In this document: in pieces, positions 1,336 through 55,945 of the stretch
Layout: the number at the start of each line of letters is the position of its first letter
How positions within the stretch are numbered: the stretch's first letter is position 1
Source of the DNA: Escherichia coli
Lineage (GTDB): Bacteria; Pseudomonadota; Gammaproteobacteria; Enterobacterales; Enterobacteriaceae
Assembly: GCF_003790525.1 (NCBI RefSeq)
Contig: NZ_CP033635.1
Length of the DNA stretch: 64,000 bases
Strand: one strand, 5' to 3'
Made by a program: the position numbers and the translations under genes
Notes under the pieces: generated by a model
Databases searched by the model: none
What the model was told of the DNA's origin: nothing
The model's input: only the letters and a program-made list of their open reading frames with translations

Positions 1336-2136
1336 TTACGATAAATAGAGCTTACGCAGATAATGCGGCACTGCGTCCTCGGCGTTAGTACCAATCACTT
1401 CCAGTTCCGGATGCAGATCTTTCAGACGCTGGTGCGCACTGCCCATAATGCAGCCTTTCCCCGCCATCGACAGCATTTCGGCGTCGTTCATGCCATCGCC
1501 AAAGGCAATACAATCTTGCAGGCTGTAGCCCAGTTTCTTCGCCACCGCTTCCAGCGCATGGCCTTTCGACACGCCGCCCGCCATCACTTCCAGACAGGTT
1601 AAGGTAGAGAAACTAACGTTGACGCGATCGCCCCAGCGAGCATTAATCGCCTGCTCCAGCGGCAGCAGTTGTTCATGGGAATCGCAGGTGAAGAACACTT
1701 TGCTGACGCCTTCCGGCTCCAGTAATCCCGGCTCATACAGCGCATATTTGAATACCGCTTCTTTAAAAAAGCGCATCTCTTCCGGGCGATGACGATTCAT
1801 AAACCATTCGTCGTCGCGATAAACGTTAGTAATGATGTCCGGATTGTCGTTGACTACGCCAAACAGATCGCTGGCAATATCGCGATCCAGGTTATGAGCA
1901 AAAATCAGATTGCCATCCAGATCGTGAACGCGCGCGCCATTGGAGGTAATCATGTAAGACTTAATCTCCAGATTATCGCGAATTTGCCCCACATCAACGT
2001 GGTGACGACCGGTCGCAAATACAAAGTTGATGCCGCGCGCGGTGAGCAGCTTCAGAGTTTCTTTGGCGTAAGGGGATAACGTATGGTCGGGAGAAAGTAA
2101 CGTGCCATCTAAATCAGACGCAACAACCTGGTACAT
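1336..2136 (-). CDS. yigL: HAD-family sugar/pyridoxal phosphate phosphatase YigL
   Basis: ORF 1336..2262 trimmed to the internal Met giving MYQVVASDLDGTLL (HAD motif DxDGT), 266 aa; start sits 8 nt after the pldB stop. Confidence 0.85.
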   Translation of the reverse strand: MYQVVASDLDGTLLSPDHTLSPYAKETLKLLTARGINFVFATGRHHVDVGQIRDNLEIKSYMITSNGARVHDLDGNLIFAHNLDRDIASDLFGVVNDNPDIITNVYRDDEWFMNRHRPEEMRFFKEAVFKYALYEPGLLEPEGVSKVFFTCDSHEQLLPLEQAINARWGDRVNVSFSTLTCLEVMAGGVSKGHALEAVAKKLGYSLQDCIAFGDGMNDAEMLSMAGKGCIMGSAHQRLKDLHPELEVIGTNAEDAVPHYLRKLYLS

Positions 2137-10727: not shown

Positions 10728-11678
10728 TTACAACCAGTTCTTCCGCTTAAAGTACAGATACGGTGCCAGGCCCGCGAGGATCATAAAGATAATCGCGCCA
10801 GGGTAGCCGAAGCTCCACTTCAGTTCCGGCATAAACTCAAAGTTCATCCCGTAGCTGGAAGCGACCAGCGTCGGTGGCAGGAACACCACGGATACCACCG
10901 AGAAGATTTTGATGATGCGGTTCTGCTCGATATTGATAAAGCCCATCGCCGCCTGCATCAGGAAGTTCACCTTCTGGAACAGGGATTCGTTATGCGGCAG
11001 CAGGGATTCGATATCTCGCAGGATTTCACGCGCCTGCTCCAGTTGCCCACCCGGTAAGCGTGCTTTACGTACCAGGAAGTTGAGCGCGCGCTGGGTATCC
11101 ATCAGACACAGGCGAACTTTCCAGCCGATATCTTCCAGTTCCGCCAGCGTGGAGAGCGCCTCGTCGTACTCATCGCCCTGATGCCCTTCCATAATTACCC
11201 GGCTCAACTGCTCCAGGTCACTGTAGATATTTTCAATTTCATCCGCCAACTGTTCGATTTTGGTTTCGAACAGATCCAGCAACAGCTCGTAGGCGTTACC
11301 GTCCACCATCGACTGGCTACGGGCACGCATACGATACAGACGAAAAGCGGGCAGTTCACGCTCACGCAGAGTAAACAGACGACCATCACGAATGGTAAAT
11401 GCCACAGTGGAGTTACCGGCGTGATCTTCCGCATCTTCAAAGAAGAAGAAGGAGTGAATATGCAGGCCGTCATCGTCTTCAAAGAAACGTGCCGATGCTT
11501 CGATGTCTTCCAGTTCCGGGCGGGTTGCCAGGCTCTGGCCAAGTTCAGATTGTACGCGCAGTCGCTCGTCGTCGTCCGGTTCGACAAGATCAATCCATAC
11601 TGCATTTACAAGGGGTTGTGACTCTTCGACTTCCAGCCGGGTCAGTCGGTTATTTTCCAGTTGAAATGCGCTCAGCAT
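10728..11678 (-). CDS. corA: Magnesium/cobalt transporter CorA
   Basis: ORF 10728..11693 trimmed to [15 protein letters not shown] (316 aa); GMNF motif and C-terminal TM helices present. Confidence 0.93.
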
Positions 11679-24937: not shown

Positions 24938-26131
24938 ATGACGGAACAAGAAAAAACCTCCGCCGTGGTTGAAGAGACCAGGGAGGCCGTGGACACCACG
25001 TCACAACCTGTCGCAACAGAAAAAAAGAGTAAGAACAATACCGCATTGATTCTCAGCGCGGTGGCTATCGCTATTGCTCTGGCGGCGGGCGTCGGTTTGT
25101 ATGGCTGGGGTAAACAACAGGCCGTCAATCAGACTGCCACCAGCGATGCCCTGGCTAACCAACTTACTGCACTGCAAAAAGCCCAGGAGAGCCAAAAAGC
25201 CGAGCTGGAAGGCATTATCAAGCAACAAGCTGTACAGCTTGAGCAGGCGAATCGTCAGCAAGAAACGCTGGCAAAACAGCTGGATGAAGTCCAACAAAAG
25301 GTCGCCACCATTTCCGGCAGCGATGCTAAAACCTGGCTGCTGGCTCAGGCTGATTTCCTGGTGAAACTCGCCGGACGGAAGCTGTGGAGCGATCAGGACG
25401 TCACGACCGCTGCAGCGTTGCTGAAAAGTGCAGACGCCAGCCTGGCGGATATGAATGACCCGAGTCTGATTACCGTTCGCCGGGCAATTACCGATGATAT
25501 CGCCAGCCTTTCTGCGGTATCGCAGGTGGATTATGACGGCATTATCCTTAAGCTTAATCAGCTTTCAAATCAGGTAGATAACCTGCGTCTTGCTGATAAT
25601 GATAGCGATGGTTCGCCGATGGATTCCGACGGTGAAGAGCTTTCCAGTTCCATCAGCGAATGGCGTATCAATCTGCAAAAAAGCTGGCAGAACTTTATGG
25701 ACAACTTCATTACGATTCGCCGTCGTGATGACACCGCCGTACCGCTGTTAGCGCCAAATCAGGATATCTATCTGCGCGAAAATATTCGCTCTCGCCTGCT
25801 GGTCGCAGCACAAGCTGTACCGCGTCACCAGGAAGAGACTTATCGCCAGGCGCTGGAGAACGTCTCCACCTGGGTACGTGCTTACTACGATACTGATGAT
25901 GCCACCACCAAAGCGTTCCTCGACGAGGTGGACCAGTTAAGCCAGCAAAATATCTCGATGGATCTTCCGGAAACCCTGCAAAGCCAGGCGATGCTGGAAA
26001 AATTGATGCAGACCCGCGTGCGTAACCTGCTGGCACAACCGGCAGCAGGGACAACGGAAGCTAAACCTGCACCTGCACCTGCACCTGCACCGCAAGCTGA
26101 TACTCCGGCAGCCGCGCCGCAAGGAGAATAA
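24938..26131 (+). CDS. hemX: HemX (uroporphyrinogen-III C-methyltransferase homologue; membrane protein)
   Basis: 397-aa ORF with one TM segment, coiled-coil Q/A-rich region and a C-terminal PAPAPAPAP tract. Confidence 0.9.
26066..26089 (+). repeat. Tandem hexanucleotide repeat (cctgca)x4 inside hemX, encoding (PA)n
   Basis: cctgcacctgcacctgcacctgca read directly. Confidence 0.8.
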
Positions 26132-26133
26132 CC

Positions 26134-27330
26134 ATGCTAAAAGTGTTATTGCTCTTTGTTTTGCTGATTGCGGGGATCGTGGTTGGCCCGATGATTGCCG
26201 GTCATCAGGGGTACGTATTGATTCAGACCGACAACTACAATATCGAAACCAGCGTCACTGGCCTCGCGATTATTTTGATTCTGGCGATGGTAGTGCTGTT
26301 TGCCATTGAGTGGCTACTGCGGCGGATCTTCCGCACAGGCGCGCACACCCGTGGGTGGTTTGTCGGACGTAAGCGTCGCCGTGCCCGTAAGCAGACCGAA
26401 CAGGCGCTGCTGAAACTAGCGGAAGGCGATTATCAGCAAGTTGAAAAGCTGATGGCGAAAAATGCCGATCACGCTGAACAACCGGTGGTGAACTATCTGC
26501 TGGCTGCCGAAGCCGCGCAACAACGCGGTGATGAAGCACGCGCCAACCAACATCTGGAACGCGCAGCGGAGCTGGCCGGCAACGACACAATTCCGGTAGA
26601 AATCACCCGTGTACGTCTGCAACTGGCCCGTAATGAAAACCATGCTGCACGCCACGGCGTGGATAAGCTGCTGGAAGTTACGCCACGCCATCCGGAAGTA
26701 TTACGTCTGGCGGAACAGGCGTATATCCGCACTGGTGCATGGAGTTCGCTGCTGGATATCATCCCATCAATGGCGAAAGCCCACGTTGGCGATGAAGAAC
26801 ATCGTGCAATGCTGGAACAACAGGCATGGATTGGCCTGATGGATCAGGCGCGTGCCGATAACGGTAGCGAAGGTTTGCGTAACTGGTGGAAAAACCAAAG
26901 CCGGAAAACGCGTCATCAGGTGGCGTTACAGGTGGCAATGGCGGAACACCTTATTGAGTGTGATGACCATGACACCGCCCAGCAAATTATCATCGACGGC
27001 CTGAAACGCCAGTATGACGATCGCCTGCTGCTGCCGATCCCGCGTCTGAAAACCAATAACCCGGAACAGCTGGAAAAAGTGCTGCGCCAACAGATCAAAA
27101 ACGTGGGCGATCGCCCGTTGTTGTGGAGCACACTGGGTCAGTCGCTGATGAAGCACGGCGAATGGCAGGAAGCATCGCTCGCCTTCCGCGCGGCGCTGAA
27201 ACAACGTCCGGACGCCTACGATTACGCATGGCTTGCCGACGCGCTGGACAGACTGCACAAACCGGAAGAAGCCGCAGCGATGCGTCGCGATGGCTTGATG
27301 CTGACCTTACAGAATAACCCGTCACAGTAG
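26134..27330 (+). CDS. hemY: HemY (TPR-containing membrane protein of the hem operon)
   Basis: 398-aa ORF with two N-terminal TM segments, 2 nt after the hemX stop. Confidence 0.9.
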   Translation: MLKVLLLFVLLIAGIVVGPMIAGHQGYVLIQTDNYNIETSVTGLAIILILAMVVLFAIEWLLRRIFRTGAHTRGWFVGRKRRRARKQTEQALLKLAEGDYQQVEKLMAKNADHAEQPVVNYLLAAEAAQQRGDEARANQHLERAAELAGNDTIPVEITRVRLQLARNENHAARHGVDKLLEVTPRHPEVLRLAEQAYIRTGAWSSLLDIIPSMAKAHVGDEEHRAMLEQQAWIGLMDQARADNGSEGLRNWWKNQSRKTRHQVALQVAMAEHLIECDDHDTAQQIIIDGLKRQYDDRLLLPIPRLKTNNPEQLEKVLRQQIKNVGDRPLLWSTLGQSLMKHGEWQEASLAFRAALKQRPDAYDYAWLADALDRLHKPEEAAAMRRDGLMLTLQNNPSQ

Positions 27331-27993: not shown

Positions 27994-29649
27994 ATGGAAT
28001 TTTCGTTTTCACCCAAACTTCTTGTTGTAGCTGTCGCCGCCGCTCTTCCACTCATGGCCAACGCAGCAGATACCCCGTCAACCGCCACCGCACGCAAAGG
28101 CTTTGCCGGATACGATCACCCAAACCAGTATCTGGTTAAACCGGCGACCACTATTGCCGACAACATGATGCCGGTGATGCAGCATCCTGCACAAGACAAA
28201 GAAACCCAGCAGAAGCTGGCAGAACTTGAGAAAAAAACCGGTAAGAAACCGAACGTGGTTGTTTTCTTGCTGGATGATGTGGGCTGGATGGATGTTGGCT
28301 TTAACGGCGGCGGCGTGGCGGTGGGTAACCCTACACCAGATATCGACGCCGTTGCCAGCCAGGGGCTGATTTTAACTTCGGCGTATTCTCAACCGAGTTC
28401 TTCCCCAACCCGCGCCACGATTCTTACCGGACAATACTCCATCCACCACGGCATTCTGATGCCGCCAATGTACGGGCAACCGGGCGGTCTGCAAGGGTTA
28501 ACCACTCTGCCGCAGTTGCTGCACGATCAGGGCTACGTCACTCAGGCCATCGGGAAATGGCATATGGGGGAAAACAAAGAGTCGCAGCCGCAGAACGTTG
28601 GCTTTGATGATTTCCGCGGCTTTAACTCGGTATCCGATATGTATACCGAATGGCGTGATGTTCACGTCAACCCGGAAGTCGCCCTGAGCCCGGATCGTTC
28701 TGAATACATCCAAAAACTGCCGTTCAGCAAAGATGACGTTCATGCCGTGCGCGGCGGTGAACAGGAAGCCATTGCCGACATTACGCCGAAATATATGGAA
28801 GACCTGGATCAACGCTGGATGGAATATGGCGTTAAGTTCCTCGACAAGATGGCGAAGAGCGATAAGCCTTTCTTCCTCTACTACTGCACTCGCGGCTGTC
28901 ACTTCGATAACTACCCAAATGCGAAATATGCGGGTAGCTCTCCGGCGCGCACCTCTTACGGCGACTGCATGGTGGAGATGAACGATATCTTCGCCAATCT
29001 GTATAAAGCACTGGAGAAAAACGGTCAGCTTGATAACACGCTGATTGTGTTCACCTCTGATAACGGTCCGGAAGCCGAAGTTCCGCCGCACGGTCGCACG
29101 CCGTTCCGCGGTGCGAAAGGTTCTACATGGGAAGGCGGCGTTCGTGTGCCAACCTTCGTTTACTGGAAAGGCATGATCCAACCGCGTAAATCTGACGGCA
29201 TTGTCGATCTGGCGGATCTCTTCCCTACGGCGCTGGATCTGGCGGGGCATCCTGGGGCGAAGGTAGCGAATTTAGTACCGAAAACCACCTTTATCGATGG
29301 TGTGGACCAGACATCTTTCTTCCTGGGAACAAATGGTCAGTCTAACCGTAAGGCCGAGCACTACTTCCTCAACGGTAAACTTTCTGCTGTGCGTATGGAT
29401 GAGTTCAAGTATCACGTCCTGATCCAGCAACCGTACGCGTATACCCAGAGCGGGTATCAGGGTGGATTCACCGGCACAGTAATGCAAACGGCGGGATCGT
29501 CGGTGTTTAACCTGTACACCGATCCGCAGGAAAGCGACTCCATCGGCGTGCGCCATATTCCGATGGGTGTACCGCTACAGACCGAAATGCACGCGTATAT
29601 GGAGATCCTGAAAAAATATCCACCACGCGCGCAGATTAAATCTGACTAA
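27994..29649 (+). CDS. aslA: Arylsulfatase-family protein AslA
   Basis: 551-aa ORF with signal peptide and a sulfatase-type CxPxR-like motif ([11 protein letters not shown]). Confidence 0.9.
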
Positions 29650-46323: not shown

Positions 46324-47583
46324 TTATGAGCGTTTCATCATTTCGAAGAAATCGTCATTGGTCTTGGTCATTGCCAGTTTATTAATGAGGAATTCCATTG
46401 CATCGATTTCGCCCATCGGGTGAATGATTTTGCGCAGGATCCACATTTTCTGCAGTTCTTCCTGAGTCGTGAGCAGCTCTTCTTTACGGGTACCGGAACG
46501 GTTGTAGTCGATAGCCGGGAAGACGCGTTTTTCAGCGATCTTACGAGAGAGGTGCAGTTCCATGTTGCCTGTACCTTTAAACTCTTCGTAGATAACTTCG
46601 TCCATCTTGGAACCGGTATCGATAAGCGCGGTAGCGATGATGGTCAGGCTGCCGCCCTCTTCCACGTTACGCGCCGCACCAAAGAAGCGTTTCGGACGAT
46701 GCAGAGCATTGGCATCCACACCACCGGTCAACACTTTACCTGACGCCGGAACAACGGTGTTGTAAGCGCGCGCCAGACGAGTGATGGAGTCGAGCAGAAT
46801 GATAACGTCTTTCTTGTGCTCAACCAGGCGTTTGGCCTTCTCGATCACCATTTCCGCAACCTGAACGTGGCGAGATGCGGGTTCGTCAAAGGTAGAAGCA
46901 ACAACTTCACCTTTAACCAGACGCTGCATCTCGGTGACTTCTTCCGGACGTTCGTCGATCAGCAGAACCATCAGTACGCAATCCGGGTGGTTGTAAGCAA
47001 TGCTCTGAGCAATGTTCTGCAGCAGCATGGTTTTACCGGCTTTCGGCGGTGCCACAATCAGACCACGCTGACCACGACCGATAGGTGATGCCAGATCCAG
47101 TACGCGAGCGGTTAAATCTTCCGTAGAACCGTTACCACGTTCCATACGCAGACGAGAGTTTGCGTGCAGCGGGGTTAAGTTCTCAAAGAGGATTTTGTTG
47201 CGGGCGTTTTCAGGTTTGTCGAAGTTAACTTCGTTAACTTTCAGCAGCGCAAAATAGCGTTCACCTTCTTTCGGCGGGCGAATCTTACCAGAGATGGTAT
47301 CACCAGTGCGGAGGTTGAAACGGCGGATTTGGCTAGGGGAAACGTAGATGTCATCAGGACCGGCGAGGTAGGAGCTGTCTGCGGAACGGAGGAAACCAAA
47401 TCCATCCTGCAATATCTCCAGTACGCCATCACCAAAGATATCTTCGCCACTCTTTGCGTGCTGCTTCAGGATGGCAAAAATAATGTCCTGCTTACGCATA
47501 CGAGCCAGGTTTTCCAGCCCCATATTTTCGCCGAGAGTGATCAGCTCAGAAACCGGCGTATTCTTTAATTCGGTAAGATTCAT
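46324..47583 (-). CDS. rho: Transcription termination factor Rho
   Basis: ORF 46324..47655 trimmed to [25 protein letters not shown] (419 aa); Walker A PPKAGKT. Confidence 0.95.
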
Positions 47584-54469: not shown

Positions 54470-55945
54470 TTAACCTGCAACAGCAATACGTTTCATATCC
54501 GTCATATAGCCGCGCAGTTTCTTACCTACCTGCTCAATCGCATGGCTGCGAATCGCTTCGTTCACATCACGCAACTGCGCGTTATCTACCGCACCTTCCG
54601 GAATAGCTTTACCCAAGTCGCCCGGTTGCAGCTCTGCCATAAACGGTTTCAGCAGCGGCACACAAGCGTAAGAGAACAGATAGTTACCGTACTCGGCGGT
54701 ATCAGAGATAACCACGTTCATTTCGTACAGACGCTTACGAGCGATAGTGTTGGCAATCAGCGGCAGTTCGTGCAGTGATTCATAGTAAGCAGACTCTTCG
54801 ATGATGCCGGAATCAACCATGGTTTCAAACGCCAACTCAACGCCTGCTTTTACCATCGCGATCATCAGTACGCCTTTATCGAAGTACTCCTGCTCGCCGA
54901 TTTTGCCTTCATACTGCGGCGCGGTTTCGAACGCGGTTTTGCCGGTCTCTTCACGCCAGGTCAGCAGTTTCTTATCGTCGTTGGCCCAGTCTGCCATCAT
55001 GCCGGAAGAGAATTCGCCGGAGATGATGTCATCCATGTGTTTCTGGAACAGCGGCGCCATGATCTCTTTCAGCTGTTCAGACAGCGCGTAAGCACGCAGT
55101 TTCGCCGGGTTAGAGAGACGGTCCATCATCAGCGTGATGCCGCCCTGTTTCAGCGCTTCGGTGATGGTTTCCCAGCCGAACTGAATCAGTTTTTCTGCGT
55201 ATGCCGGATCGGTGCCTTCTTCCACCAGTTTGTCGAAGCACAGCAGAGAGCCAGCCTGCAACATACCGCACAGGATGGTTTGCTCGCCCATCAGGTCAGA
55301 TTTCACTTCCGCAACGAAAGAGGATTCCAGCACGCCCGCACGATGACCACCGGTTGCCGCCGCCCACGCTTTAGCGATCGCCATGCCTTCGCCTTTCGGA
55401 TCGTTTTCCGGGTGAACGGCAATCAGCGTCGGTACGCCGAATCCACGTTTGTACTCTTCACGCACTTCGGTGCCAGGGCATTTCGGCGCAACCATTACTA
55501 CGGTGATGTCTTTACGGATCTGCTCGCCTACTTCCACGATGTTGAAACCATGCGAGTAACCCAGCGCCGCGCCGTCCTTCATCAGTGGCTGTACGGTGCG
55601 CACTACATCAGAGTGCTGCTTGTCCGGCGTCAGGTTAACCACCAGATCCGCCTGTGGGATCAGTTCTTCGTAAGTACCCACTTTAAAACCATTTTCGGTT
55701 GCTTTACGCCAGGATGCGCGCTTTTCGGCAATCGCTTCTTTACGCAGAGCGTAGGAGATATCGAGACCAGAATCACGCATGTTCAGGCCCTGGTTCAGAC
55801 CCTGTGCGCCACAGCCGACGATGACTACTTTTTTACCCTGAAGGTAGCTCGCGCCATCGGCGAATTCATCGCGCCCCATAAAGCGACATTTGCCCAGCTG
55901 TGCCAGCTGCTGGCGCAGATTCAGTGTATTGAAGTAGTTAGCCAT
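54470..55945 (-). CDS. ilvC: Ketol-acid reductoisomerase
   Basis: ORF 54470..56167 trimmed to [23 protein letters not shown] (491 aa). Confidence 0.95.

Follow-up and report, generated by a model that had tools for sequence, protein, structure and literature searches.

The hexanucleotide repeat in the C-terminal tail of HemX is the VNTR of the Escherichia coli MLVA locus CVN014

The tandem CCTGCA repeat near the 3' end of Escherichia coli hemX is an already known element, namely the VNTR of the generic E. coli MLVA locus CVN014. We consider it highly probable (roughly 0.87) that the tract is a slippage VNTR located in a disordered and non-conserved tail of the HemX protein and most likely nearly neutral. 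During replication, slipped-strand mispairing would add or drop whole CCTGCA units within the pure run, and because the unit equals two codons the reading frame would always be kept while Pro-Ala pairs are gained or lost. Nothing but the C-terminal tail of HemX, an inner-membrane protein, would be affected.

The repeat tract and locus CVN014

In the 64-kb stretch of E. coli DNA that we analysed (the window; Table 1), positions 26060..26095 read gct aaa (cct gca)x4 ccg caa. Codon 377 of the open reading frame at 24938..26131 opens with position 26066, which places the tract in frame with P377-A384 forming PAPAPAPA. Sequence and ORF thus agree with the first-pass annotation, which had described four perfect cctgca copies at this place encoding PAPAPAPA near the HemX C-terminus. 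Tandem Repeats Finder (TRF) called the tract at 26065..26091 (period 6, 4.5 copies, 100% matches), the sole array with 100% matches among the seven weak hits returned for the window, and the expected count of a three-unit CCTGCA pattern over 100 shuffles was 0. The six further TRF repeats (10980..11021, 28269..28300, 46996..47024, 55781..55804, 57944..57970 and 63483..63519) are two-copy and imperfect, with periods of 12-21 and 80-92% matches, and none is a perfect multi-copy array. An ORF on the minus strand at 25937..26122 (61 aa, containing 'RCRCRCRC') was rejected as a gene, as it mirrors the repeat inside the well-supported hemX. We also set aside the idea that a strong DNA hairpin drives the instability, given that the tract reaches only -3.2 kcal/mol (z = -1.6) and slippage needs no such structure.

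Table 1. Features of the hemX-hemY region, in window coordinates
Feature	Position	Strand	Basis
hemX CDS, 397 aa: N-terminal transmembrane helix, long helix, Pfam HemX domain	24938..26131	+	ORF, Pfam, RefSeq, AlphaFold2
A/P/Q/T-rich tail of HemX, residues 367-397 (31 residues)	26036..26128	+	outside Pfam domain; predicted coil
CVN014 primer R site (GCAGCRGGGACAACGGAAGC)	26042..26061	+	exact match, unique in window; primer from PMC8143711 Table 1
(CCTGCA)x4 hexanucleotide VNTR, the CVN014 repeat array	26066..26089	+	sequence (zero mismatches, read directly), TRF, shuffles, allelic series
hemY Shine-Dalgarno AAGGAG, within last hemX codons (Q-G-E; caa gga gaa)	26121..26126	+	
hemY CDS	26134..27330	+	ORF, RefSeq; start 45 nt past repeat
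CVN014 primer F site (TCCCCGCAATCAGCAAMACAAAGA), in first hemY codons	26153..26176	-	exact match, unique in window; primer from PMC8143711 Table 1

The assignment of CVN014 to the hemX tail follows from our mapping of the published primers, which are convergent, lie one on each side of the tract and delimit an amplicon of 135 bp (26042..26176). The locus has been described with a 6-bp unit and an offset of 111 bp, such that the number of repeats is (product size - 111)/6 (PMC8143711). Applied to the window, (135-111)/6 gives 4 repeats, equal to the CCTGCA units counted directly, and for the K-12 allele a product of 123 bp would be expected, equal to 2 units. CVN014 and the tract in the window therefore share locus, primers, 6-bp unit and offset, with nothing substantive that differs between them. 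CVN014 has been called 'the most variable locus' of its scheme (PMC3877011), varied the most in a further study (PMC5217547) and took values of 2-11 in ST131 isolates in which the other loci were constant (PMC3407997); the alleles published so far range from 2 to 15. In the citations given by PMC8143711, PMC5217547, PMC3877011 and PMC3407997, the GECM-7/GECM-10 scheme goes back to Lindstedt et al. 2007 and Lobersli et al. 2012. Within the open-access MLVA papers that could be searched hemX is not named, and we found no literature that joins hemX with a tandem repeat; the hemX search turned up only a point mutation in Salmonella hemX, which is unrelated.

Coding VNTRs with in-frame 6-bp units are used to type enterobacteria, as with STTR5 in yohM of Salmonella Typhimurium and the hexamer loci of O157. 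The hemX tract is like these in being a hexanucleotide within a CDS, with in-frame slippage, fast turnover inside clones and a role as marker in epidemiology, but it appears to differ from them in the gene and in the repeat sequence.

Copy number among complete E. coli genomes

Using a 241-nt query across the tract, we found the locus in nearly all complete E. coli genomes (5425 of 5426). In the single remaining genome nothing matches the hemX-hemY junction; one of the matching places is plasmid-borne, and in a few genomes there are two such places. Among the matches listed, the matched spans were 229, 235, 241 and so on up to 289 nt, always in steps of 6 nt, and a 1001-nt query gave the same pattern with spans reaching +78 nt, again among the matches listed. 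From the 5425 genomes we drew two systematic samples (n=40 and n=60, the latter evenly spaced) and fetched one record per length class, the copy number of the non-fetched genomes being derived from the alignment span. Across the two samples the copy number ranges from 0 to 17, in a broad, unimodal distribution with a long right tail, and the Simpson diversity in the n=60 sample is ~0.89 (Table 2). That copy number varies between strains had been claimed in the first-pass annotation, which named invariance as the outcome that would speak against it; the complete genomes are far from invariant. Its statement that K-12 HemX is a few residues shorter also proved right, as K-12 hemX has 1182 nt and encodes 393 aa against 397 aa in the window, a difference of exactly two units. 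Our survey agrees with the published range and variability of CVN014 and adds alleles of 0, 16 and 17 units.

Table 2. CCTGCA copy number in the n=60 sample and in named strains, the strains being listed independently of the sample
CCTGCA units	Genomes in n=60 sample	Strains
2	8	K-12
3	2	S88
4	6	this window
5	9	CLSC36
6	10	BL21(DE3)
7	6	other strains
8	6	other strains
9	5	other strains
10	2	other strains
11		other strains
12	2	O157:H7 Z910
13	2	
16	1	E1
17	1	DETEC-P1056

The sequences of the alleles point to replication slippage. Thirteen fetched alleles are pure CCTGCA runs of 2-12, 16 and 17 units with flanks that are otherwise collinear, and the entire length difference falls within the uninterrupted run. 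Each of three SNP haplotypes in the 3' flank occurs with at least three different copy numbers, and three strains labelled O157:H7 have 6, 12 and 13 units, which suggests that copy-number changes recur within lineages; the values of 2-11 in ST131 isolates (PMC3407997) point the same way. There is also a counter-pattern, in that the sampled K-12 derivatives all share the 2-unit allele and the two BL21 strains the 6-unit one. Taken together with what is established for short tandem repeats, the pure units, the whole-unit alleles and the apparent recurrent change within lineages argue for slipped-strand mispairing as the source of the variation.

We regard it as almost certainly wrong that chance produced the tract as a low-complexity run or that its length variation is an assembly artefact. 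Long-read assemblies can indeed miscall short repeats, but the length differences are all exact multiples of 6 nt with the reading frame kept in the RefSeq annotations, and capillary electrophoresis in MLVA studies has independently recorded the same variation. A chance run is contradicted by the shuffles, which give zero expected matches. Chance and artefact are thus both refuted.

In all fetched alleles hemX is annotated as an intact CDS of 384-423 aa with the frame kept. The shortest of these belongs to NCTC11023 (NZ_LS483297.1), which carries a natural in-frame deletion of 27 nt relative to a two-unit allele of the K-12 type, equivalent to 26068..26106 of the window. This deletion takes the whole tract plus CCGCAAGCTGATACTCC, with loss of the next four codons (QADT), lies between short CC microhomologies and leaves a HemX of 384 aa. 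In a separate observation, an ENA metagenome protein of 485 aa resembles the HemX of E. coli but has a tract that is interrupted (PAPAPAPTPAPAPAP) as well as ~88 additional residues, which presumably represent an N-terminal extension or a gene-call fusion.

A phase-variation switch was considered and rejected, since the 6-nt unit is in frame, all alleles encode an intact hemX and the tract lies within the CDS. With a unit of two codons no frameshift is possible, which excludes on/off switching. Contingency loci are the phase-variable simple-sequence genes of Neisseria, Haemophilus and Campylobacter. The hemX tract shares with them a slippage-prone short tandem repeat within a gene and probably high mutation rates; unlike theirs, its unit is a multiple of three, it is not in a promoter and it causes no frameshift.

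The HemX tail in E. coli and related genera

RefSeq calls the ORF hemX in E. coli SMS-3-5, whose sequence is identical to the window and whose gene order at the locus is cyaA, hemC, hemD, hemX, hemY, aslA. The product name there is 'uroporphyrinogen-III C-methyltransferase', an assignment that Pfam labels 'putative' and that seems to be carried over from older annotation, with little to support it as a function. What HemX does is poorly defined. One study describes it as a remote Mic60 homologue without the mitofilin domain (bioRxiv 10.1101/2022.06.14.496148), and YhcB/ZapG has been reported as a two-hybrid partner whose interaction with HemX is conserved in three species (PMC8163987); neither source deals with the tail.

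An AlphaFold2 model of HemX built from 70 homologues (mean pLDDT 78) is membrane-anchored and all-helical, with a helix at residues 36-126 followed by a helical domain. Helices run throughout up to residue 366, after which residues 367-397 are coil with pLDDT dropping from 77 to 48. The Pfam HemX domain covers residues 130-363 and leaves the tract outside, and by the positive-inside rule the tail is probably periplasmic. The A/P/Q-rich low-complexity tail of the first-pass annotation is therefore borne out, the residues in question being A/P/Q/T-rich and modelled as low-confidence coil. Its idea that the repeat may act as a flexible linker is not supported, for only 12-13 residues and no domain follow the tract before the stop codon, which leaves nothing to link; in addition, distant homologues have no tail or unrelated tails, and NCTC11023 lacks the tract together with four codons. 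Segments of the (AP)n type are, besides, usually regarded as stiff and not as flexible.

Representatives of distant HemX homologues extend 1-106 residues past the last helix in unrelated low-complexity sequence, many of them stopping 1-10 residues past the domain, and none of these representatives has a run of at least three consecutive PA/AP pairs. Among the closer relatives, we compared the orthologous spots of Citrobacter gillenii (1380..1500), C. sedlakii (1380..1503) and Salmonella enterica (1350..1470; all in coordinates of the respective records). The Citrobacter freundii complex also has a GCACCT/CCTGCA hexamer encoding (AP)3-5, with GCACCT x3-5 corresponding to proteins of 395, 397 and 399 aa. 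In C. sedlakii the unit is one of 9 nt (GCACCTGCC) in 1-3 copies (proteins of 394, 397 and 400 aa), and Salmonella has no repeat and a single GCGCCTGCC. The Citrobacter length variants are independent of those in E. coli and occur at the equivalent position, which on comparison of these sequences appears to be an indel hot spot, hit repeatedly within a tail that tolerates such changes, in Citrobacter though not in Salmonella. An A/P-rich tail ending in PAAAPQGE is kept in Escherichia, Citrobacter and Salmonella, three closely related genera with an overall identity of 86-91%. Outside this group, the terminal QGE is the one piece of the tail to recur.

The retained tail and octapeptide raise the question of selection. 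One reading, which we hold to be unlikely, is that (PA)n is a selected, length-tunable stiff spacer that sets the periplasmic reach of PAAAPQGE or the sensitivity of the protein to tail-specific proteolysis, so that copy-number variation would be adaptive tuning of an envelope protein. It draws on the retention of the A/P-rich tail and terminal octapeptide in three genera, on the length polymorphism of the equivalent position in two Citrobacter lineages, and on the report of an envelope partner of HemX (YhcB/ZapG, two-hybrid, three species; PMC8163987). Against this, Pfam and AlphaFold2 place no folded domain after the tract, the tails of distant homologues vary over 1-106 aa with no common motif and without the Pro-Ala run, and a natural allele exists without the tract and QADT. 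Furthermore, the QGE that recurs outside the three genera has codons that hold the hemY ribosome-binding site, and the broad, unimodal and right-tailed copy distribution is what slippage and drift predict.

The (EP)n(KP)n region of TonB and the APAPAPAP hinge of OmpA are proline-rich periplasmic (XP)n spacers, each placed between two functional domains. In HemX the tract is like these in its alternating X-Pro sequence in an envelope protein, for which an extended, non-globular form is expected, but it joins no domains and its length varies even within one species.

We thus return to near-neutral slippage as the preferred reading. Since anything from 0 up to at least 17 units is tolerated, a nearly neutral polymorphism is most likely, and the tail seems at least partly dispensable. 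The A/P-rich tail and PAAAPQGE shared by three genera could still reflect some function, but the genera are closely related and the last codons are bound by the hemY Shine-Dalgarno sequence.

The hemX-hemY junction and implications

The stop codon of hemX (26129..26131) and the hemY ATG (26134) are separated by a gap of 2 nt, and the Shine-Dalgarno AAGGAG sits 7 nt 5' of that ATG. The short stop-start gap and the position of the Shine-Dalgarno inside hemX suggest that the two genes are translationally coupled. Citrobacter and Salmonella keep both the QGE ending and GGAG, and DNA-level constraint from the hemY Shine-Dalgarno in its codons is enough to explain the conservation of QGE. A hairpin between the Shine-Dalgarno and hemY codons 5-10 was predicted as well, yet it is no better than shuffles (z = -1.1) and was discarded.

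With only 45 nt from the tract to the hemY ATG, and the apparent coupling just described, repeat length might alter the expression of hemY through mRNA structure or through ribosome transit over the Pro-Ala codons. We judge such an effect very improbable. In partition-function folding with 0-20 units, the unpaired probability of the Shine-Dalgarno is 0.002-0.003 throughout and the accessibility of the initiation region is likewise constant at 0.30-0.32, with predicted pairing of the repeat to the initiation region essentially zero. The distance from the ribosome-binding site to the start codon is unaffected by copy number, and PA repeats are without the consecutive prolines linked to strong ribosome stalling.

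CVN014 has been used in routine E. coli outbreak typing since 2007, so the tract carries little weight as a discovery. The added value is modest and consists in placing CVN014 explicitly in the HemX C-terminal tail, together with a genome-based allele range of 0-17 units that matches the electrophoresis-based literature. There is a small chance, which we put well into the improbable range, that the Pro-Ala pairs serve by their number as a 'ruler', heritable and quick to mutate, which sets how far the C-terminus of HemX reaches or how stable it is to proteolysis. If that were true, lineages would drift between envelope or haem-related phenotypes via slippage at CVN014, and the typing marker would be a quantitative contingency locus. 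Under near-neutral slippage, the tract would instead be a fast-evolving strain marker rather than a functional switch, and a tail that tolerates very different lengths is unlikely to be critical for HemX function.
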